Source: Promethearchaeota archaeon
GTDB taxonomy: Archaea > Asgardarchaeota > Heimdallarchaeia > Hodarchaeales > Hodarchaeaceae
DNA: 64,000 nt
Reading direction: 5' to 3'
Assembly (NCBI GenBank): GCA_048938105.1
Contig: JBHLMN010000017.1
Coordinates: forward strand, 1 to 64,000
This document shows, one piece after another, positions 29,688 through 41,775 of the stretch. The translations under genes were made by a program, and so were the position numbers. Positions within the stretch are counted from its first letter, which is position 1; each line of letters starts with the position of its first letter. The notes beneath the pieces are model-generated. The model saw only the letters and a list, made by a program, of their open reading frames with translations. It searched no databases and had not been told where the DNA came from.

Positions 29688-30569
29688 TTACAATATTGCG
29701 ATAATGAATAACAGGAATGGAGAAATAATTATGTAATCTGCAATAAAGAAATATAACCATGCTAAAGGAACATCAGCAGCTTTTTTTCTATCAGTTTTCA
29801 ATAAATAAGTAGTATAAACAACCATCATTAATAAAGCGATAAAGGTGCCCTTAAGCATACAGAGAACAACAGTTGCCAGAGCGATAAGAAAATAGAATAT
29901 GTATCGAAGTTTAATAGTTGTATCTATTCCCAACACAACAACAGTAGTTCTTTGATTCGTTTTCAAGTCTAGAAAATAATCTGGGATTTGATGATTTATT
30001 TGAGCTAGCAAAGATGTAATAGAAATGAAAAGAAATACACTATAAAATTGGATATCAAAACTCCATATTACATTAAAACCGAAAATGAACAAGTAGAGAG
30101 GAAGAAAAGAGATTTGAAACCATACTACATGGAAAATCCAATCAAAACCAACTCGACTCTTAGCTCGAAAAACCGGACTATTATATAAATAGGCAAGTAG
30201 CATTCCTGCTATAGCAAACATGAAGTAGATTAAACCAGCTAGTAATCCACTAATTAATCCACCAATTACTGAAATCCATATTAAGATTACACCAATTTTA
30301 TAATCACCGCTGTCTGGATAGCCACAAAAAACGTTCCTTGACTTCTTATACTCATCAGCCGCATCATAAGGAGCATCGTAATAATCATTTGAAATCCAGA
30401 TGAAAATATTGAAAAATATCATTGAAAGGATAATTAAAATTGCATTGAACATATCAAAATCGAGAGAGTTTCGTAAATTTAGTACCAAACCAGTTAGGGC
30501 AAAAAGTGATGAACCAACAATATTAGGAAATCTAAGGCGGTAAAGTACATTATTTTGCATTATTTTCAC
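29688..30569 (-). CDS. UbiA family prenyltransferase
   Basis: NDYYDAPYD, YNSPVFRAK, IPDYFLD...TTVVVLG; multi-TM. Confidence 0.85.
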   Translation of the reverse strand: MKIMQNNVLYRLRFPNIVGSSLFALTGLVLNLRNSLDFDMFNAILIILSMIFFNIFIWISNDYYDAPYDAADEYKKSRNVFCGYPDSGDYKIGVILIWISVIGGLISGLLAGLIYFMFAIAGMLLAYLYNSPVFRAKSRVGFDWIFHVVWFQISFLPLYLFIFGFNVIWSFDIQFYSVFLFISITSLLAQINHQIPDYFLDLKTNQRTTVVVLGIDTTIKLRYIFYFLIALATVVLCMLKGTFIALLMMVVYTTYLLKTDRKKAADVPLAWLYFFIADYIIISPFLLFIIAIL

Positions 30570-30677: not shown

Positions 30678-31403
30678 TCAATCCTTAGATTCTTTTGTTT
30701 CTTCAGAATTTGATGAATTGACCTCTGATTTTTCCCACACTACTTCACCATGCCAATCTTTGATTCGTTTCACTGGACTCCCTGCATAAATTGAGTTTGT
30801 TCTTAATACACGGTTAGATGGAATAACTGAATTACTGGCTACAATCACATTGTCTTCAATTGTTACCCCAGGAAGCATAATTGTACCTGCTCCAATAGTA
30901 CAATTTTTTCCTATTCTGATTCTTTTTCTGTAAAGCTCTCCTTGAGAGATAGCATGGGAACCTATGATGCAACCAGTACCAATAAATGTATCATCTCCTA
31001 TTTCTATCAACTCGACATCCCATAATCTAGAGTAAATACCAACACGTTTCCCTAACTTACACCCAAATAATTTATAGAATACTGCAGGAAATATCTGATT
31101 CACAAAAAGTTTATTCACCAGGAAATATGCACAATCTTGACTAGCCATAGCAATACCCCATAAGGCCCAATCCCATCCTCTTAGAATTCCTTCTTCATTC
31201 CTCATCAATAATCTTGCGACCCTATTTATTACTACAAAAAGGAGCAGAAAACTAAATAATGTGGAACAGATTGACAGAAATAGTGAGAAGAATAATTGTT
31301 GAGGGTTATTAGCAAAAATAGTGTTGAAATAATCATAATACTGAACTCCTACAAAAAGAATTGTAGCTAATAGAAATATCTGAAATATTACCCACGCAAC
31401 CAT
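30678..31403 (-). CDS. Membrane-anchored hexapeptide-repeat (LbH) acyltransferase
   Basis: 2 N-terminal TM helices; IEIGDDTFIG, IRIGKNCTIGAG..LPGVTI, YAGSPVKRIK. Confidence 0.85.
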   Translation of the reverse strand: MVAWVIFQIFLLATILFVGVQYYDYFNTIFANNPQQLFFSLFLSICSTLFSFLLLFVVINRVARLLMRNEEGILRGWDWALWGIAMASQDCAYFLVNKLFVNQIFPAVFYKLFGCKLGKRVGIYSRLWDVELIEIGDDTFIGTGCIIGSHAISQGELYRKRIRIGKNCTIGAGTIMLPGVTIEDNVIVASNSVIPSNRVLRTNSIYAGSPVKRIKDWHGEVVWEKSEVNSSNSEETKESKD

Positions 31404-31460: not shown

Positions 31461-33125
31461 TTAATCTTCAAGATTAGTTGAAGGCGCGAGATGACCAAAC
31501 ACTTCCTCTGCTATGTCGACCGCACCATCAAATAAAGACCGTTTTCCAGCCCATGTTTCAAGTATTTTTTCGTATTTAGTGCAGAACTGATCTAAGAATT
31601 CTCTAAGTGCAGAATGCAATTCTGGATCCTGTTTGTTACTAAAGATAGCAGCAGAAATTCCACTCTTGATTTCTGTTAAAATAAAATGATTTCCATGTCT
31701 CACCAGATTCAAGTCTCCCTTATCCTTCATAGTTTCAGACATAAATGAAGAAACAGCCCTAAGAGCCCCAGAAAGCAAAGTTAATTCTATTGACGTATCG
31801 AGCTCCTTTGTAAAAGTATAATCAAAAATAGGAAGCCCTCCTTCTTCAATAACGAGAAGTAATGTGAAATCAAGGGGTTTATAACTATCTGACACCCAAA
31901 ATAAAGGTAGAGCCGCTAAAACCGCAAGGATGGTTATGAGATATGTGATAAACTCAATGCTAGCAAGCTCTGTAACTATAGGTTTCAAAACCCAGTGGCC
32001 AAATCCAGAGCCAATCCCCAAACCTAACGCGAGAGAGATAAATCCTACCGCAAAATAACGGCCAAGACCATCACGTGGAGATAGATCTGCCCATAAGGAA
32101 GAATCTAAAGTTGGATGGAGCAAAGCGAAAGAAAATCCAATTATTAAAGCAGCCACAAGAAAACTATTGGGGTTTTTTTCTAATCCAAAAATTAAGGATG
32201 CAAACACTATTCCATAAATTGTAGCTATAATCAAATATTTACGACCAAAGCGATCTGCTATTTGCCCAGCAGGTAATATCATCAATAGATCTCCCAGTAA
32301 AACGAAAAACCAGAATGTTTTATCGACTGGAAGATCGAAATTACCAACACCAGGAATACTAATGGGGGGCCAAGAAAAATCCATTAATCCCCCTATTTGT
32401 GAAAAACTCGCAATAGATATTCCGAGCATTGTGTATAATAAAATATGTGAAAGCATGTAAGCTCGGACTGACCTTCTTCCTATTATTTTTTCGAATTTTG
32501 TTGGCCATTTATCATTTTGCCAAGGAACACCCATATCAAAGGTTAAGAGAAAGAAAACCAATGACAAAATGAGGCCTAACACACCGATAACTAGTAGAAC
32601 ACTAATGAAACTATGGCTTAATAATCCACTTTGATATTGATGAGAAAATGCACCTCCCCCTAAGATGCTAACAAGAGTAATAAGAATAAAGAAAAAGATA
32701 CCATAAGAGTATATTCTTCCTCGGTACCACATGTCAGTTAAGCCTGCAAACAGGGTCCCACTACTTGTCAGTAATATTCCAAAGAAGAAAGCTAAACTTG
32801 TCAAACTAATCATTAATAAGAGACTAACTTCAAAAAAAATAATAAAAACAATAACGGAGATTGAGCTCCCTACCATCCCAATTAATATAGATTTCCTGAG
32901 GTAGTCAGGATATTTATCAAGTAATACACCAGTGAAATAAAGCATGAAGATGACCAAGCATAAAATAAATCCTAAAATGATAATTCCAAATCCTGCAAAT
33001 GGATTTGTTTCAGAGGCTTCTACTCTTTCTAAAATATCAAAAGAGTAAATTAAAAGCAGAAGAGAAGCTAACAACCAAGAGAAAATACTCGGTATTACTA
33101 TTGTAAGGATTGTTTTGACTTTCAT
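31461..33125 (-). CDS. MFS transporter fused to a C-terminal longin-like domain (paralog 2)
   Basis: About 12 TM, motif A GQIADRFGRK; soluble tail LLVIEEGGLPIFDY..LLSGALRAVSSF..NLVRHGN..LREFLDQFCTKY..W.G...F. Confidence 0.85.
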   Translation of the reverse strand: MKVKTILTIVIPSIFSWLLASLLLLIYSFDILERVEASETNPFAGFGIIILGFILCLVIFMLYFTGVLLDKYPDYLRKSILIGMVGSSISVIVFIIFFEVSLLLMISLTSLAFFFGILLTSSGTLFAGLTDMWYRGRIYSYGIFFFILITLVSILGGGAFSHQYQSGLLSHSFISVLLVIGVLGLILSLVFFLLTFDMGVPWQNDKWPTKFEKIIGRRSVRAYMLSHILLYTMLGISIASFSQIGGLMDFSWPPISIPGVGNFDLPVDKTFWFFVLLGDLLMILPAGQIADRFGRKYLIIATIYGIVFASLIFGLEKNPNSFLVAALIIGFSFALLHPTLDSSLWADLSPRDGLGRYFAVGFISLALGLGIGSGFGHWVLKPIVTELASIEFITYLITILAVLAALPLFWVSDSYKPLDFTLLLVIEEGGLPIFDYTFTKELDTSIELTLLSGALRAVSSFMSETMKDKGDLNLVRHGNHFILTEIKSGISAAIFSNKQDPELHSALREFLDQFCTKYEKILETWAGKRSLFDGAVDIAEEVFGHLAPSTNLED

Positions 33126-33230
33126 TTGACATTCACCTTACTGCATTTATACAATCTATTAATGTTTATTAATTTACTTGAACATGTATTCCTATTTCAG
33201 ATAACAGCAAATTGATCATGGTTTTGACTC

Positions 33231-34859
33231 TCATGGGCTTCCAGAAATTGTTTTAGATGGCAGAAGAGGCCCAAAAACATCTTCAGCTATACTGACCGCA
33301 GGTTCAAAAATACTTGTTTGGCCTATCCATTCATTAATTTCATCGTGATAAGATAAACAAAATCTAGCTAAGAAGGAATTGAGACTATTTTGCAATTCAG
33401 GATCCATTTTATTAGCAAAAATTGTTGCAATAATCTCTTTTTCCTCTGTTCCAGCTTTAGCTTGAACAGTAACTACTTTTCCATGGCGGACAAGATCTAA
33501 GACAGCTGGTTGTTTACTCAATCCTTCAAAAAATGTACTAATAGCTGATAACGCTCCCGCAACTAGTGTTAAATCTTTCTGTGTAATTTTACTTTGTTCT
33601 GGTCGATCAAAATCGTAATTAAACATACATATCCCACTTGAAGCAACAAGTAAAAGGTAAATATCTAGAGGTTCAAAGGAATCTGCTACAAAAAATAGTG
33701 GGAATAATCCAAGAATAGCAGATCCGAAAAGAACATAACTGATTGTACTGGGATGCAATGGAAGTATGAAAAGGCCAACGATTAATCCAAAACCAACTCC
33801 TTGCAGCAAAAATATGAAACCTAATGCATTATAACGCCCTACCGAGTCAAGAGGGCTTAAGTCACACCAAACTGCACTATCAAGAGAAGGGTGAATAGTT
33901 GAAAAACATACCCCTAACAAATATGCAGCGAAATAAAACATCAACGGATCTTCACTAATTCCTACAATTAATGCTGCAATAACAACTACATAGAAACCCA
34001 TTACGATTAGATTCTTTCGTCCAAAACGGTCAGAAAACCATCCCATTGGAATAACACAGATTAAATCACCAAAGAACACAATAATCCAAAATAATGTTGT
34101 TTGATCCAGTTGGAACTCTCCAAAGGATGGAAGTTTAATAATAAAATCAGGATAACGTAAATGACCTATTTGGGAGATTGCAGCGAAAGCAACACCAAGC
34201 ATGAAGTAAATAAAGAAGTGAGCAAGCAAATAAGCTTTGATGGATCTACGATTTATTATATGTCTGATTGGCGTGGGAAATACATCATTCACCCAAGGGG
34301 ACACTGAGCGAGAAATATAATAGAAGATTGGTACTGCAAGAATCGCTATCAAACCGATGATAATTAATGGAATTCGAGTATCCAGTTGAAAAAGCTCAAC
34401 ATAAATAATAATGATTAAAGATAACATTGCACTGATAAATAAGGCTACAGCATAAATTCGACCTCGATGGTGAACATCTGTATAGGCCGTATAAAGTGCA
34501 CCAGCCCCTGTTGCCAATATCCCAAGGCATATACCAAGACCTGGTAGCCCTATTAGAAGAAAGATAACAAAATTAACACCTAGAATTGTTAAAAAGAGAC
34601 AAATGCCACTCATTAACAGAGATCCAGTAATTAAAGGTCTCAGTATTTGTGGATTCTTGTCTATTACATGTCCCGAACTATATAGAGAAATAGTAGCAAA
34701 GCATGTCGTTATAAATAGAATAACCACCCCTGGACTAGATATGCTCTGTTCTACATTTATTTCTAGCAAATCAAAAGCATAAACTAAGAGAAATGGAGCT
34801 GTAACTAGCCATACGATGGTAGTGGGTAATATAATAAAGAAAATCTTAGTGATTTTCAT
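33231..34859 (-). CDS. MFS transporter fused to a C-terminal longin-like domain (paralog 1)
   Basis: About 12 TM, GWFSDRFGRK; soluble tail LLVASSGICMFNY..LVAGALSAISTF..DLVRHGK..LNSFLARFCLSY..WIG...F. Confidence 0.85.
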   Translation of the reverse strand: MKITKIFFIILPTTIVWLVTAPFLLVYAFDLLEINVEQSISSPGVVILFITTCFATISLYSSGHVIDKNPQILRPLITGSLLMSGICLFLTILGVNFVIFLLIGLPGLGICLGILATGAGALYTAYTDVHHRGRIYAVALFISAMLSLIIIIYVELFQLDTRIPLIIIGLIAILAVPIFYYISRSVSPWVNDVFPTPIRHIINRRSIKAYLLAHFFIYFMLGVAFAAISQIGHLRYPDFIIKLPSFGEFQLDQTTLFWIIVFFGDLICVIPMGWFSDRFGRKNLIVMGFYVVVIAALIVGISEDPLMFYFAAYLLGVCFSTIHPSLDSAVWCDLSPLDSVGRYNALGFIFLLQGVGFGLIVGLFILPLHPSTISYVLFGSAILGLFPLFFVADSFEPLDIYLLLVASSGICMFNYDFDRPEQSKITQKDLTLVAGALSAISTFFEGLSKQPAVLDLVRHGKVVTVQAKAGTEEKEIIATIFANKMDPELQNSLNSFLARFCLSYHDEINEWIGQTSIFEPAVSIAEDVFGPLLPSKTISGSP

Positions 34860-35105: not shown

Positions 35106-36323
35106 TTGGATAAGATCATCTTGACAAGTATTGAGAAAACTATTGAAATGGTTGATACTGACAGATTATATAAGCACTTACTCTCTCTTGAAGGTGTTAG
35201 ACACGCGCTTGACTCTTACGATACTTTAATTCAAGCTAGCAATTATATTGAGAAAACACTACAGCAAAGTAACATAAAAATAAATAGACACTTTTTCCCT
35301 GTTAAAGGATTAAAGAAAGAGTTTTTCAACATTGAAGGACTGTTAGGAGAACGAATGGATTTAACTCAACCTACACTATTGATAACTAGTCATTACGACA
35401 CGGTTTATTCTACTCCTGGTGCTGATGATAACGCAAGTGGAGTAGCAGTCATGCTTGAAGTAGCTCGTGTTCTTCACGAAATAGATTATAAAAAGAATGT
35501 TATTTTCGTAAGCTTTAACTTAGAAGAATTCTCCCCTAGTTTACAAAAGCCAATAAGAGCGCTTGGTACCCAATATGGGGTTTTTGACGAAGAATTCCGT
35601 TATATTTCTTGGCCCCTAAAGAAATACGCGGATCAATTTAAGAAGTTGATAATTTCATCAGGTCCAGCAAAACCTTACCTTGATGAGGAGAACTGGCGAA
35701 AGTTTGAAGAAAAGGCAAAACAAGAATTAAACGGAACGGAACTTATATTCTTTAAGAAACAGAATGAAATATTTCGCGAGTCAGCTCAAGATGATCCCTT
35801 CGGTAAAAGCTTTTGTTTGGGTAGTGATGCGTATTCAAAATATGTATTCAAAAGTAAAATGACTGCAAAAGGAGTTATTAATCTGGAGTCAGTAGGTTTT
35901 GTGTCTATTGAACCTCATTCTCAACGTTTACCCCAAGGTATAAGTCTAGACATGTTCAAAACCCATAGCACTGATCATGATAGAATGATCGGGAATTATA
36001 TTACTGTTATAGGAGATGAAAACTCTCAAAATCTTTCAGATGCTTTTTTCGAATCATCGCAACATAAATCGATTAATCTTCCTTGTGCTAGTCTGAATGT
36101 TCCTTTAGATTATGAAGGAATTAAACAAACTATGCCAGACCTATTAAGAAGCGATCATGCTCCTTTCTGGAGATATAGTATTCCTGCAATAATGGTAACT
36201 GATACAGCTAATTTTCGAAATCCATACTATCATACGGGTGGAGATACAATAAATACTATAAATTTTCCTTTTATGAAGAAAATTTGTCAAACAACCCTCG
36301 CTACAATAATCAAATTACTTTAA
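35106..36323 (+). CDS. M28 family peptidase
   Basis: SHYDT, PGADDNASG, FNLEE, INLESVG, RSDHAPFW, PYYH. Confidence 0.9.
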   Translation: MDKIILTSIEKTIEMVDTDRLYKHLLSLEGVRHALDSYDTLIQASNYIEKTLQQSNIKINRHFFPVKGLKKEFFNIEGLLGERMDLTQPTLLITSHYDTVYSTPGADDNASGVAVMLEVARVLHEIDYKKNVIFVSFNLEEFSPSLQKPIRALGTQYGVFDEEFRYISWPLKKYADQFKKLIISSGPAKPYLDEENWRKFEEKAKQELNGTELIFFKKQNEIFRESAQDDPFGKSFCLGSDAYSKYVFKSKMTAKGVINLESVGFVSIEPHSQRLPQGISLDMFKTHSTDHDRMIGNYITVIGDENSQNLSDAFFESSQHKSINLPCASLNVPLDYEGIKQTMPDLLRSDHAPFWRYSIPAIMVTDTANFRNPYYHTGGDTINTINFPFMKKICQTTLATIIKLL

Positions 36324-36401: not shown

Positions 36402-38096
36402 ATGATAGAAATGAAAAAGACTCCGATCACTTTAATTAAGCTTGGTGGAAGTATAATAACTTATAAAAAAGATAGGCTTCGTATTGAACAATATTTAGGT
36501 AAAATAGATAGTGTCTTATCAGGTAAAGGCTCACTAGAAGAATTAACAAAAACGATTTCAGATTTAGTAAACTTTCAAAACCTAAATAAAATTCTAAATA
36601 TTCTCTCTTCCTTTATAGCCCAAAATCCCCCAAAAAAAATCGCATTGATTCATGGAGCGGGCTCAATTGGTCATTCATTAGTTTTACACTTATTAAAGAA
36701 ACATACAGATTTAGAATCTGATTATCCAATCATTAAACTTGCTGTGGCGATTCAAAATCAAATAATTGTTTCTGAGGCTATGAAATACGGCATTAATGCT
36801 ATTTCCTTTCCTTCTCATTCTATTTTTACAGGTGTACATACCCAAGATATTTCTACAAACAAAGCTGATGCTTCAGATTTAAAAGTATTTGAACAGATAA
36901 TTACTAAGACTACTGCTATTCCGATTTTTTTCGGAGATGTAGGTTACACTCCTAACGGATGGAAAGTCTTCTCTGGAGATATTATTCCTGCCGCTCTAAC
37001 GAGACGCCTTAAAAATACTTTTCTCGATTCAGTCATTTTTTTAACCAATGTTGAAGAAAAGCGTACTGGAATATATACTAAAGATCCTAGCCTTAATGAT
37101 GCGGAATTTATTGCATATATCGAAGTTGATGCTGACAAGGTAAAGTGTTATAATCCTAAAAATGAGATTCTATCATTCCAAGGAGGAGAAACCAAAGGAG
37201 ATTTTGATGTCACTGATGCGATGGGAGGCAAGCTTCGCAACCTTACTGAATTAGCGAATACTCAGGTAAAATGCTGGGTTGTTGGTATCAATGAATTCGT
37301 CCAAGCGTTGGACGAAAAAAATGTTGGTACAAGAGTTTTCCCAAAGAGAAAACCCCAAATAAATGTTGTATTTTTGGGGACAGGTGATGCCTTTGGATCA
37401 GGTGGAGGTAAAAGTGCCTCTGTTTTTGTTAAGATCGGAACAAAAGGGATTTTATTAGATTGTGGACCCCATTCTTTACAGGCTTTAAAAGAATCAGGTA
37501 GATCTACCAATGATGTTGATATAATCATTATTTCCCATTTTCATGGAGATCACCTAGGAGGAGTCCCTTTCTTTCTATTAGAAGCTAGTGTCCTACAAAA
37601 AAGAGATAAAGTCTTAACTATAATTGGCCCTCCAAACATAAACAGAAAAGTTACCAATCTTTACTCTGCTCTATATGAAGCTATTGCAGAAAAAGAGCTA
37701 CCTTTTCCATGTGAATTCCGAAGTATAAAGCCATCTAATTCCTCATTAGAGCTGAATGGTATAACAATCCAACCTTTTAAAATGCTTCATACACCAGAAG
37801 CTCAAGGATATAGAGTTGAAACAAGAGAAAGATCTATAGCGTATTCAGGTGATACTGGTTGGACAGATGAATTGGTACCTCTTGTCAAAAATACACAGCT
37901 AGCGATTATGGAATGTAATTTTTTAGACAGTGAACATGAAATTCATCTAAACTATCATCAATTGAAAAAACTTCAATCACTAACCGATAGAATGGCTCTC
38001 ATTCACTTAGGAGTAGAAGTAATAGACAGAGCTTTTATATTAAAAAGAGATAAAAATATATTTATTCCTTTAGAAGGCCAGGAAATATGGATATAA
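36402..38096 (+). CDS. Isopentenyl phosphate kinase-like domain fused to an RNase Z-like metallo-beta-lactamase domain
   Basis: IKLGGSIIT, HGAGSIGH, FFGD, SGD, DVTDAMGGKL; then FLGTGDAFG, DCG, SHFHGDH, YSGDT. Confidence 0.85.
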   Translation: MIEMKKTPITLIKLGGSIITYKKDRLRIEQYLGKIDSVLSGKGSLEELTKTISDLVNFQNLNKILNILSSFIAQNPPKKIALIHGAGSIGHSLVLHLLKKHTDLESDYPIIKLAVAIQNQIIVSEAMKYGINAISFPSHSIFTGVHTQDISTNKADASDLKVFEQIITKTTAIPIFFGDVGYTPNGWKVFSGDIIPAALTRRLKNTFLDSVIFLTNVEEKRTGIYTKDPSLNDAEFIAYIEVDADKVKCYNPKNEILSFQGGETKGDFDVTDAMGGKLRNLTELANTQVKCWVVGINEFVQALDEKNVGTRVFPKRKPQINVVFLGTGDAFGSGGGKSASVFVKIGTKGILLDCGPHSLQALKESGRSTNDVDIIIISHFHGDHLGGVPFFLLEASVLQKRDKVLTIIGPPNINRKVTNLYSALYEAIAEKELPFPCEFRSIKPSNSSLELNGITIQPFKMLHTPEAQGYRVETRERSIAYSGDTGWTDELVPLVKNTQLAIMECNFLDSEHEIHLNYHQLKKLQSLTDRMALIHLGVEVIDRAFILKRDKNIFIPLEGQEIWI

Positions 38097-38643: not shown

Positions 38644-39258
38644 ATGTATTATTTGATCAATCATTACGGGACATCTTTAAAAATTGGAGATAGCAGTTTG
38701 GCAAAAGGTAAGGAAATTAAACACATTTTGAAACTTTTACTCCTTGGAGACGGAGCAGTAGGAAAAACTTCATTGATTCTAAGGTTTATTGAGAATCGAT
38801 TTTCCGAAGATTATCAAATGAGTCTAGGTGTTAATTTCCTAACGAAAACTGTCACGTTTATTGATACAAAGAACGTAAAACGAATCGCTTCATTACAAGT
38901 TTGGGACATAGCTGGACAAGCAAGACATGTTTCATATTCTCATCTCTACTTAAAAGGAGCTTTAGGTGCTTTCTATGTGTTTGACTTGACACGTCGTGAA
39001 ACACTTCTTCAAATGCAGGAAAGGTGGCAAGCACAAGTATTGAGAGTCTCACCACAGTGCCTGTCCATTCTCATTGGAAATAAGGCTGATTTAGAGAAGG
39101 ATCGGGCTTTATCAACATCTCAATCAAGGAAGATTCACGAAGCTATGCATGCCATCGATTACATCGAAACCTCTGCAAAAACTGGGGAAAACGTTAATCA
39201 AGCTTTTCAGACCATGACAACAAGGATACTGAATGTTACTGCAAAGAAATTTTTATGA
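38644..39258 (+). CDS. Rab-like small GTPase (start probably TTG 38698)
   Basis: LKLLLLGDGAVGKTS, SLGVNF, LQVWDIAGQ, GNKADL, ETSAKTGENV; no C-terminal Cys. Confidence 0.93.
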   Translation: MYYLINHYGTSLKIGDSSLAKGKEIKHILKLLLLGDGAVGKTSLILRFIENRFSEDYQMSLGVNFLTKTVTFIDTKNVKRIASLQVWDIAGQARHVSYSHLYLKGALGAFYVFDLTRRETLLQMQERWQAQVLRVSPQCLSILIGNKADLEKDRALSTSQSRKIHEAMHAIDYIETSAKTGENVNQAFQTMTTRILNVTAKKFL

Positions 39259-40039
39259 GGAGTTGATAATGACACTAGAGAAGTTTAAAACAATTAAGGC
39301 TTTCTTTATCTTCGAAAAAGAGACGGGGAATACACTATTTACCCGCTCATATGAAAAAAAAGATACAACAACTCCTGATGCCCATCTTGTAGTGGCTTTT
39401 TTAACAGCGATGTTCTCCTTCGCAAAATCGTCGTCATTAAGTGAGCTTCGAGTTGTAGATATGACTGATCTCCGTTTCTCGTTCATCGAAAGAGGGGATT
39501 TAGTGTTCGCTATCTTAGCTTCACCACTTGTGAGTCCTTTGGACTTACAGTTCAAATTAACTACTATTGCGAGTTTATTTTTGGCAGAATATGGGTCTCA
39601 ATTAGAAGAAATACAACTTGTTGATACAGAGCTATTTGAAGCATTCAAAAATCATGTAGATGAAGTTTTCTTAGGTGAAACTCGCGAGATGTTAACCAGT
39701 TCAAAGAATGCTGCATTATTTTATCTTAAAAAATTAGTACAACAAAAAAGCATTGGCGCCCGAGGAGCAATGATTGTTTCTTTCACTGGTGACATTTTAC
39801 TTGAATATAAAATGGATCAAACACGAATGGAAGGAGCGATTCGCATGTTGAATGTTTCAACATATATGAGGAATTTACGTTACTTAGTCGTTTCTTCAGA
39901 AGCAACTAATCTGGTTGCATACAAAATTAGCGAAGGATTATTGCTGTATGTTGATGGAGATCCTACCTCTGGATTAGAAAACCTCGTTGTTAAAGTCTCT
40001 GAAACAGTCAGAAAAGTGAAAGAGATCATTCCTCATTAG
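39233..40039 (+). CDS. Longin-like + roadblock-like two-domain protein (start probably ATG 39269)
   Basis: FFIFEKETGNTLFTR..LVVAFLTAMFSF..LTTIASLFLAEY (longin); ARGAMIVSFTGDIL (roadblock/MglB-like). Confidence 0.75.
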   Translation: MLLQRNFYEELIMTLEKFKTIKAFFIFEKETGNTLFTRSYEKKDTTTPDAHLVVAFLTAMFSFAKSSSLSELRVVDMTDLRFSFIERGDLVFAILASPLVSPLDLQFKLTTIASLFLAEYGSQLEEIQLVDTELFEAFKNHVDEVFLGETREMLTSSKNAALFYLKKLVQQKSIGARGAMIVSFTGDILLEYKMDQTRMEGAIRMLNVSTYMRNLRYLVVSSEATNLVAYKISEGLLLYVDGDPTSGLENLVVKVSETVRKVKEIIPH

Positions 40040-40692: not shown

Positions 40693-41775
40693 ATGAACAG
40701 AACTAAATTAGAAAGCATCAAGTTCCTTCAAAAAGAACTCTCTGAACTCATCGGAGTTAGTGGTCATGAAAAACCAGTTATAGAATTTATCCAAAGCCAA
40801 ATCGAAGGATTAGCGGATAAAATATGGATTGATCCTCTTGGATCCCTCTTAGCAATTAAAGAGGGAAATGAAGGTAAAGAAAGAATCATGATTGACGCTC
40901 ATGCTGACGAAATTGGTTTCATGGTCAGCTATATTGAACCTAGAGGAGGTTTTTTGCGTTTTGTACCCATAGGAGGTTGGGATACGCGGATTCTTTTAGG
41001 ACAAGCAGTCAAAATTCTTACAAATGATGGAAACATATATCATGGTATTATTGGTTCAAAACCAATTCACTTAACAACAGAAAGTGAACGGAAAAGCGCA
41101 GTTAAGACAAATGACATGTATATTGATACAGGTATGTCTACTAAGGAGGAAGTAAAGTCCTGTGGAATTCATATAGGCACTATTGGTACCCTTTACGATC
41201 CTTTTGTTGAATTTCCAAATAATATGGTAAGAGGTAAAGCTTTTGATGACAGAACTGGAGTTAATGTTTTAATTCACATTATACGGGAATTCGCAGAAAC
41301 AACACCTTCAGATACCGTACTATTCAGTTTTTCTATGGGTGAGGAGATAGGAGGAAGAGGAGCAGGACCAGCAGCTTTCTCCTTGGATCCCACTATGGCT
41401 TTAGCCATCGAAAACACCACGGCAGCAGATGTTCCTGGAATTAAAAAATCGGAATGCCCTGCGTATATTGGAAAAGGACCAGCAATTTCAGTTGCTGATA
41501 GGAGCTTGATTGCACATCCCTTCGTTAATCAGAGACTGATAGAAAATGCTAAGCATGAGAACATTCCATACCATATAAAAAAGCCACTTTTTGGTGGTAC
41601 AAACGCTGGAAGGATCCATCAGATAAGGAGTGGAATACCCTCTTCAGTGGTGTCGGTTCCATGTCGATATATACACTCACCAACATCTCTATTATCTTTA
41701 GAAGATATTTTTCATACTATTCGGCTTATATCAGCATTTATTCGCAATCCCGCAAATGTTCTCAGCAGCCCTTGA
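40693..41775 (+). CDS. M42 (TET/Frv) aminopeptidase
   Basis: GVSGHE, AHADEIG, GKAFDDR, EEIG.RGA, CRYIHSP. Confidence 0.93.
   Translation: MNRTKLESIKFLQKELSELIGVSGHEKPVIEFIQSQIEGLADKIWIDPLGSLLAIKEGNEGKERIMIDAHADEIGFMVSYIEPRGGFLRFVPIGGWDTRILLGQAVKILTNDGNIYHGIIGSKPIHLTTESERKSAVKTNDMYIDTGMSTKEEVKSCGIHIGTIGTLYDPFVEFPNNMVRGKAFDDRTGVNVLIHIIREFAETTPSDTVLFSFSMGEEIGGRGAGPAAFSLDPTMALAIENTTAADVPGIKKSECPAYIGKGPAISVADRSLIAHPFVNQRLIENAKHENIPYHIKKPLFGGTNAGRIHQIRSGIPSSVVSVPCRYIHSPTSLLSLEDIFHTIRLISAFIRNPANVLSSP

Follow-up and report, generated by a model that had tools for sequence, protein, structure and literature searches.

The window analysed here, a stretch of 64,000 nucleotides from a Promethearchaeota archaeon of the order Hodarchaeales (NCBI GenBank assembly GCA_048938105.1, contig JBHLMN010000017.1, positions 1 to 64,000 of the forward strand), contains two adjacent genes whose products combine a major facilitator superfamily (MFS) body with a C-terminal longin tail. 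Both are found on the minus strand as open reading frames (ORFs) at 31461-33125 (gene A, 554 aa) and 33231-34859 (gene B, 542 aa), exactly where a first-pass annotation of the DNA had reported two co-oriented genes of about 550 aa. B lies upstream of A, separated by a gap of 105 nt, and the two proteins align over their full length with 38% identity (E 1e-116), so that their description as tandem paralogues holds. The motif DRFGRK and a segment of the form HP.LDS..W.DLSP.D..GRY are common to A and B, and the longin pattern quoted in that annotation is present in the soluble stretch of about 140 aa that closes each protein. In the case of A, the MFS body (residues 1-411, 12 transmembrane (TM) helices, supported by Pfam MFS_1, an AlphaFold2 model and Foldseek) is encoded by positions 31893..33125, and the longin tail (residues 412-554 plus the stop codon, supported by a tail profile, the model topology, VIA-align and Foldseek) by 31461..31892. 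In the case of B, the ORF and Pfam MFS_1 support an MFS body of 12 predicted TM helices (residues 1-391, 33687..34859), followed by a tail recognised by the tail profile and by a faint match to Sybindin (residues 392-542 plus stop, 33231..33686). The tail profile itself matches 31467-31892 in A (E 9.3e-72) and 33246-33686 in B (E 2.5e-51).

The membrane bodies of both proteins pass the Pfam MFS_1 gathering cut-off of 33.4 bits, A with 59.2 bits and B with 48.8 bits. The AlphaFold2 model of full-length A (mean predicted local distance difference test score, pLDDT, 87; predicted template modelling score, pTM, 0.87) shows 12 long helices, about 10 linker residues and a longin domain, and Foldseek relates it to the solved MFS transporters PfHT1, YajR (the second-best match), VMAT1/2 and SV2A (E 6e-9 to 1e-7), with TM-scores by target of up to 0.79. 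Matches to MFS-longin proteins in NCBIfam are limited to weak, generic drug/cation-carrier models. The DRFGRK sequence had been read as motif A of the superfamily, and it is indeed present in A and B; its location needs correction, since the strong copy is placed in the TM8-TM9 loop of the C-terminal half, where D291, R295 and K296 of the GxxxDRxGRK motif are invariant, and the N-terminal half has a degenerate counterpart, which reads DKYP in A and DKNP in B. This arrangement explains why Pfam maps residues 276-415 onto the N-terminal half of the MFS_1 profile. The TM2-3 loop, degenerate as it is, nevertheless keeps the invariant G66 and D70.

The strongly conserved polar residues of the family (D70, R135, D205, R217, D291, R295, K296, H337, D341, D347, D352 and R356) are all located on the cytoplasmic face, distributed over the two motif A loops, the loops TM4-5 and TM10-11 and the central loop, and B retains every invariant one. 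H227 is the only conserved polar residue inside a helix, which indicates that the gating network beside the tail is more constrained than the cavity. This pattern would suit a hydrophobic substrate, or a body in which the conformational state is of more importance than the cargo. The 12 helices, together with a lysine-rich N-terminus, imply that the tail should be cytoplasmic.

The tail of A was modelled with an alignment of 43 family tails (pLDDT 76), and the resulting topology is b-b-a-b-b-b-a-a. In the tail-only and the full-length models of A alike, DSSP assigns strands to tail residues 9-15, 20-26, 63-66, 69-76 and 79-85 and helices to 37-54, 90-112 and 118-132, which corresponds to the longin topology, with no N-terminal helix and an extra C-terminal one. 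A VIA-align search of the tail model against about 48,000 representative solved chains gave the longin of Sec22 as best match (Z 13.0, root-mean-square deviation 3.0, 124 residues), followed by SYBL1 (Z 12.9), TRAPP Bet5 (12.3), VAMP7 (12.3) and sedlin (12.0). About 30 entries reach a Z of at least 10, nearly all of them longins aligned over 110-130 residues, with Mon1-Ccz1, Fuzzy, the sigma and mu subunits of AP and the SRX domain among them, and the top Foldseek matches of the same tail are Mon1-Ccz1, TRAPP Bet5 and Fuzzy(-Inturned) (E around 1e-4), together with sedlin and AP sigma. Roadblock/MglB chains align over about 100 residues only, with Z of 8.4-10.7. An identity as a roadblock/LC7/MglB domain was rejected for these shorter and lower-scoring matches and for want of the required N-terminal helix: the first strand of the tail begins about 10 residues after TM12 with no helix ahead of it, so that the domain is a longin rather than a roadblock.

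Sequence comparison gave no significant family for the tail, either in Pfam (with single tails and with all 43 members), in NCBIfam or in a profile search of the PDB, and the longin assignment therefore rests on the predicted fold. The Pfam matches are faint and below the cut-off (Sybindin, E 0.006, for the tail of B; Fuz_longin_1, E 0.005, in two of the 43 members), a distant likeness links the tail to the N-terminal domain of a neighbouring 268-aa longin-type protein (hhalign E 4.8e-4 over 115 columns), and an Atlas feature search with the tail yielded scores of at most 0.88, to be taken as leads only. At the level of modelled structure, the longin domain that had been proposed for both tails is supported.

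A search with A recovered 77 relatives of similar length at E 0.001 or better. When longer proteins were searched with the tail profile, 161 clusters (90% identity) were obtained at E 1e-8 or better, and MFS_1 is present in each of the 120 listed among them (about 275-575 aa, mostly 540-575). The tail is the best-conserved soluble part across at least 161 such clusters and has a confident fold, which places it far beyond chance and confirms that the MFS-longin fusion in A and B is real. In public records these proteins carry the labels Hodarchaeales, Heimdallarchaeota or other names of metagenome-assembled genomes and no description beyond 'MFS transporter' or 'hypothetical', so that public annotation misses the longin domain entirely. 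In a survey of 300 Asgard genomes, strong tail matches (E <1e-35, in ORFs of about 550-590 aa) were confined to the genus of the window and to one genome of a sister family in the same order, and all 19 genomes of the genus gave a tail match at E 1e-12 or better; the MFS-longin subfamily was found only in Hodarchaeales. The genome of the window (5.85 Mb, 99% complete) harbours four copies, namely A, B and one each on contigs 49 and 28. A tree of the family resolves four clades, formed by A, by C (the contig 49 type), by the faster-evolving B and by a long-branch clade D that includes a protein of LC_3. Since B branches outside A+C, the B-A tandem is an old duplication and not a recent one.

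The tandem is kept in at least 11 species. Ten other species of the genus have B and A at a tail-to-tail distance of about 1.8 kb, and another two have three ORFs inserted between the genes. A conservation of the pair across Asgard genomes was not observed, as the arrangement is confined to this one Hodarchaeales genus.

Pairing of the two tails was examined by complex prediction, with the tails of A and B entered with their own separate alignments. The A:B combination obtained a score of 0.78, against 0.01 for the best of three controls; 58 of 80 solved complexes and 2 of 110 mismatched pairs attained this mark, counts that apply only roughly to the present case, in which custom alignments served as input. 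At least 93% of the contacts are shared between runs, with a partner pLDDT of at least 82. The predicted interface is formed by helix alpha1 and strand beta3 of both chains (residues 35-71 of the A tail), in the classical side-by-side mode of longin/roadblock dimers, and contains the family-invariant residues G42, A43, L44, A46, F50, L61, V64, H66 and G67. The A and B tails are thus predicted to pair. The core of this interface is invariant in all four paralogue clades, so that homodimers are plausible and equally possible. The B clade shows conserved changes of its own at the periphery of the interface, with K35 (I or V in A and C), D62 in place of N and V69 in place of H, in addition to a one-residue deletion at 52 and the loss of the lysines at 56 and 58; these changes are suggestive of specialisation for a heterotypic partner and fall short of a proof. 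The heterodimer put forward in the first-pass annotation is accordingly supported as a predicted pairing of the tails, which need not be obligate, given the invariant core and the existence of genomes with A and no B.

Taken together, these data lead us to a scheme in which carrier-like MFS proteins are paired through their longin tails, the tail dimer acting as a membrane-fixed docking or regulatory platform, a reading to which we give about an even chance. A and B are MFS-fold proteins resembling secondary transporters. The twelfth helix runs through the short conserved linker of about 10 residues into the longin domain, presumably cytoplasmic, and the tails would pair side by side, helix alpha1 against alpha1 and edge strand beta3 against beta3, as in the model, so that a longin dimer apposed to the inner membrane face would join the two MFS bodies above it. 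The dimer would probably be A:B where both genes exist and A:A where B is missing. Its most likely task would be to dock or regulate a cytosolic partner, and this presumed platform would sit beside the most conserved part of the MFS body, the cytoplasmic gating network, and may be coupled to the transport cycle.

Several observations weigh against this scheme. The gene neighbourhoods of MFS-longin loci yield no partner. A occurs without B in the same neighbourhood in three species (G118, G192 and G183), and in G240, a complete genome, a rearrangement breakpoint truncates the B orthologue to 382 aa (L015:10833-11981, minus strand) with A left whole; the truncation falls exactly where synteny with the window ends, and this genome may represent a natural case of A without a whole B. 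The B-A pair is common, not obligatory, and a heterodimer is not required, because A lacks B in three species and B is truncated in a fourth. The success of the pairing prediction may itself reflect a likeness to solved longin/roadblock dimers, and the test is also passed by close relatives of a true partner, so that A:B is indistinguishable from A:A or B:B. As for the membrane body, its central cavity is almost devoid of conserved polar residues and the full-length family profile has no match at E 0.01 to any solved MFS sequence of the PDB, for which reasons the body could be a non-transporting anchor.

The tail is not exclusive to these carriers. With the tail profile, 1960 representative clusters (50% identity) were found at E 0.001 or better, 205 of them at 1e-10, and the 14 at E 1e-30 or better correspond to the MFS-longin family itself; the domain stands at the extreme C-terminus in most matches, and the tail type occurs in 209 of the 300 Asgard genomes. 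By a crude count of hydropathy peaks in the 109 nearest other relatives of at least 250 aa, 71 have four or more and 93 at least one. The membrane body lacks any Pfam family in 50 out of 58 polytopic relatives, and the remaining eight carry MFS_1, which reveals further, more distant MFS-longin families. Since the tail type is mostly C-terminal on polytopic membrane proteins, the MFS-longin fusion is one architecture within a large Asgard theme of membrane proteins with a C-terminal longin.

Polytopic proteins of about 720-860 aa with this tail type occur throughout Asgard genomes, that of the window included. One of them, on contig 9 of the same genome (861 aa, L011:3916-6501, plus strand), belongs to no known family and ends in a longin tail; its type (720-860 aa) is present across most Asgard families, and an Atlas search with its body returned nothing usable. 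It lies tail to tail with a gene for an 874-aa HerA/DUF87-type ATPase (L011:6582-9206, minus strand) with a longin-like stretch at about 509-635. The profile also detects, in the same genome, the HerA-like ATPase with longin, single-domain longins and, at E 8.5e-7, the longin-like domain that follows an Arf-like GTPase (Pfam Arf, E 4e-38) in a 316-aa protein of contig 39 (L010:937-1887, plus strand). A tandem pair of TM-longin proteins of about 370 aa was observed in G073, from another Heimdallarchaeia family (L031:3786-4904 and L031:5127-6233, both on the plus strand); each has several membrane segments and a C-terminal longin tail, the tails are 28% identical, and the pair is unrelated to A/B.

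Such breadth bears on a first alternative, in which the longin tail would be an intrinsic oligomerisation or autoregulatory domain with no external partner, like STAS in SLC26/SulP or YAM in YajR. The invariant tail residues found outside the predicted interface (F84, N86, K87, D89, E91, W114, G116, F121, E129, F132 and G133) suggest a second conserved surface, and the presence of the tail type on many unrelated membrane bodies, on a HerA-like ATPase and on an Arf-like GTPase fits a portable interaction module better. Nevertheless, the most conserved tail residues sit in the predicted dimer interface, the short conserved linker and the pTM of 0.87 point to a fixed position against the conserved cytoplasmic loops, and gene neighbourhoods provide no partner. 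A precedent would be E. coli YajR (PDB 3wdo), the second-best structural match of A, in which a 12-TM MFS is followed by a folded soluble C-terminal domain as in A/B; the YAM domain is, however, a small ferredoxin-like fold and not a longin, and neither YajR nor SLC26/SulP is known to occur in tandem paralogous pairs. SLC26/SulP proteins are carriers with a C-terminal cytoplasmic domain, STAS, placed on a different carrier superfamily. On balance, we regard an intrinsic role as unlikely, if less so than the alternatives below.

A second alternative is that proposed in the first-pass annotation, namely that an A:B longin heterodimer serves as a guanine nucleotide exchange factor (GEF) or GTPase-activating protein (GAP) platform for a Rab- or Rag-like small GTPase, so that solute binding would be converted into GTPase signalling by a transceptor. 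Some points at the structural level favour this idea: the closest solved folds include the longins of the GEFs Mon1-Ccz1, TRAPP Bet5/Trs23 and Fuzzy-Inturned (PDB 3cue, 5ldd and 7q3d), with the same b-b-a-b-b-b-a-a topology, Z of 11-12 and Foldseek E of about 1e-4, and the eukaryotic GTPase platforms are likewise built from two paralogous subunits paired side by side through alpha1/beta3, the mode predicted for A/B. On the other hand, SNARE and adaptor longins score as high as GEF longins, the eukaryotic platforms are soluble subunits of multi-protein complexes whereas the longin of A/B is covalently fixed to a 12-TM carrier, and the tails show no sequence-level membership in eukaryotic longin families (best Pfam E 0.005-0.006, below cut-off). 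In addition, the interface core of A/B is identical in both partners, whereas the partners of obligate longin heterodimers have diverged.

The genomic context of this alternative is a module located 3.8 kb from B on the opposite strand, formed by a Ras/Rab-like GTPase (38644-39258, plus strand, Pfam Ras, E 6e-43) and the 268-aa longin-type protein (39233-40039, plus strand, with a faint match to Fuz_longin_1), the start of the latter overlapping the end of the GTPase gene. An M28 peptidase, a kinase/metallo-beta-lactamase fusion and a small ORF of 90 aa lie between B and the module. The order of the GTPase and the 268-aa protein is kept in 12 species of the genus, but synteny extends over all 20 kb of the region, a TPR protein and a class V aminotransferase included, and the kept order therefore says nothing specific. 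The 5.85 Mb of the genome contain 72 Ras-family matches, a density of about one per 81 kb, at which roughly an eighth of all loci would have a GTPase within 5 kb by chance; among the MFS-longin loci of the genome, three in number, a single one has a GTPase at that distance. No GTPase was found near the paralogue loci of contigs 49 and 28, nor near a C-clade locus of another genome, and at the LC_3 locus an Arf/Ras-like gene is 7 kb away and a plain MFS gene adjoins. In the complete genome G240, moreover, the linkage is broken, the 268-aa gene of the module being about 690 kb from A, and the GTPase already has a longin-type partner of its own next to it.

The 268-aa protein shares the order-restricted distribution of the MFS-longin family, as it was detected with this query in all genomes of the two families of Hodarchaeales (20 of 20 and 2 of 2) and in 1 of 59 other genomes of Heimdallarchaeia; a shared distribution of this kind amounts to a single evolutionary event and is weak evidence. 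A second paralogue of this protein, with about 28% identity, is present in most genomes of the genus. The GTPase-longin fusions of the genome are a further point in favour, as they show longins and GTPases working together in this organism (see also Tran et al. 2024, PMC10933270). In sum, nothing tested ties A or B to a GTPase; the proposed link finds no support in a neighbour that stays within chance, is unlinked in G240 and is missing from other paralogue loci, and we hold the GTPase platform to be improbable. Its most specific version, in which the longin heterodimer belonging to the Hodarchaeales carrier pair recruits or switches a Rab- or Rag-like GTPase according to the transport state, appears distinctly improbable; if true, it would constitute a one-piece forerunner of the eukaryotic nutrient-sensing assemblies of carrier, roadblock/longin platform and small GTPase (SLC38A9-Ragulator-Rag; Npr2/3).

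A last alternative, that the tail is a common tag read by one shared machinery for sorting, clustering, assembly or turnover, with the MFS body as cargo, would suit the number and mostly C-terminal position of the tail-type clusters, their unrelated or unknown polytopic bodies and the rank of the SNARE longins Sec22 and VAMP7 among the top Z matches (SNARE longins being read by adaptors and coats), but it is likewise improbable: neither the occurrence of tandem paralogues nor the strong conservation of the dimer interface is accounted for by a simple tag, no coat or adaptor is linked to the tail and, to our knowledge, internal membrane sorting is not established in Asgard archaea.

Returning to paired carriers with a longin platform, the scheme preferred here, the closest structural relatives of its tails are the longin SNAREs Sec22b, VAMP7/SYBL1 and Ykt6, which give the best scores (Z 13.0 and 12.9) and are also membrane-anchored. 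Their order is nonetheless reversed, with an N-terminal longin, a SNARE helix and a single C-terminal anchor, and A and B contain no SNARE motif and have a whole transporter as membrane part. SLC38A9 is a lysosomal amino-acid transceptor of the APC fold, which binds Rag-Ragulator via a disordered N-terminal tail and does not contain a longin domain. What A/B share with SLC38A9-Ragulator-Rag is the concept of a carrier joined to a roadblock/longin-type platform at its cytoplasmic face (Tran et al. 2024, PMC10933270). Within Asgard archaea, other longin/roadblock proteins (PDB 8yqg, 9jue) reflect the same lineage-wide expansion and domain shuffling, and the Lokiarchaeota longin dimer 8yqg matches the tail of A at Z 10.0. 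GTPase-longin, longin-TRAPPC3 and NPRL2-like-longin/two-component fusions have been described (Tran et al. 2024, PMC10933270; Liu et al. 2020, 10.1101/2020.10.19.343400), and GTPase-longin and longin-TRAPPC3/V4R fusions occur in the genome of the window and in the Atlas. The main texts of both papers (PMC10933270 and 10.1101/2020.10.19.343400) mention no longin fused to an MFS protein or to any transporter. A full-text search of the literature found no description of an MFS-longin or transporter-longin fusion, a 2026 structural-clustering preprint included, which agrees with the earlier impression that no such protein has been characterised.

The interest of this architecture lies in that longin/roadblock dimers are the platforms that switch eukaryotic small GTPases at membranes, so that the origin of their link to membranes and carriers bears on eukaryogenesis, and in that Hodarchaeales, the archaeal order placed nearest to eukaryotes, has the longin joined covalently to a transporter. 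Recruitment of GTPases by the tails would make this a simple, ancestor-like version of GTPase signalling coupled to carriers; a role limited to the dimerisation of carriers would instead show a use of the longin fold unrelated to GTPases and predating eukaryotes.

As regards the neighbouring genes, A is followed after 57 nt by a membrane-anchored hexapeptide-repeat (LbH) acyltransferase of 241 aa (30678..31403, minus strand, Pfam Hexapep) and then by a UbiA-family prenyltransferase (29688..30569, minus strand, Pfam UbiA, 49.6 bits). The best NCBIfam match of the acyltransferase, below cut-off, is the TM+LbH C-terminal domain of the Pls/PosA synthetases (E 1.6e-19), which are poly-amino-acid synthetases, and a model for heptaprenylglyceryl-phosphate O-acetyltransferase also matches it (4e-12). 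The acyltransferase has N-terminal membrane segments, and two or three paralogues of it surround the locus in related genomes. In 12 out of 12 related loci A precedes an acyltransferase or UbiA gene on the same strand, with a gap of about 0-110 nt; the UbiA gene comes directly after A in L014, L015, L017, L021 and L022, with a gap of 2 nt in L017. Judging from this spacing and conservation, co-transcription is likely, with the acyltransferase as a probable and the UbiA prenyltransferase as a possible operon partner of A. TATA-like boxes were sought in three short intergenic gaps, with uninformative results in such AT-rich DNA.

On the other side of the pair, the fusion mentioned above is a single ORF (36402-38096, plus strand) in which an RNase Z-like metallo-beta-lactamase domain is joined to a domain resembling amino-acid kinases and isopentenyl-phosphate kinases (NCBIfam IPPK_Arch, E 1e-23, below cut-off). 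It adjoins the MFS-longin genes in 11 of 12 related loci, the rearranged locus of G240 being the one from which it is missing. The locus is flanked by two aminopeptidase genes, of M28 type (35106-36323, plus strand) and M42 type (40693-41775, plus strand), and in related genomes a further M42-like gene (349 aa) is located between the MFS-longin genes and the kinase/metallo-beta-lactamase fusion.

The remaining paralogues have neighbours of a different kind. Upstream of the C-clade gene, on the same strand and at a distance of 23-43 nt, stands a gene for a soluble protein of 583-604 aa that is rich in lysine in its middle part and has no Pfam family (L012:9449-11263, minus strand, on contig 49 of the same genome; L035:8227-9978, plus strand), and a SIR2 gene is nearby in both genomes. 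The 604-aa form was considered as a possible relative of the tail and discarded, as hhalign detected no likeness to the longin tail. The D-clade gene of contig 28 adjoins an ORF of 914 aa (L013:8157-10901, plus strand), which corresponds to a DUF362 protein interrupted by an intein with a LAGLIDADG endonuclease.

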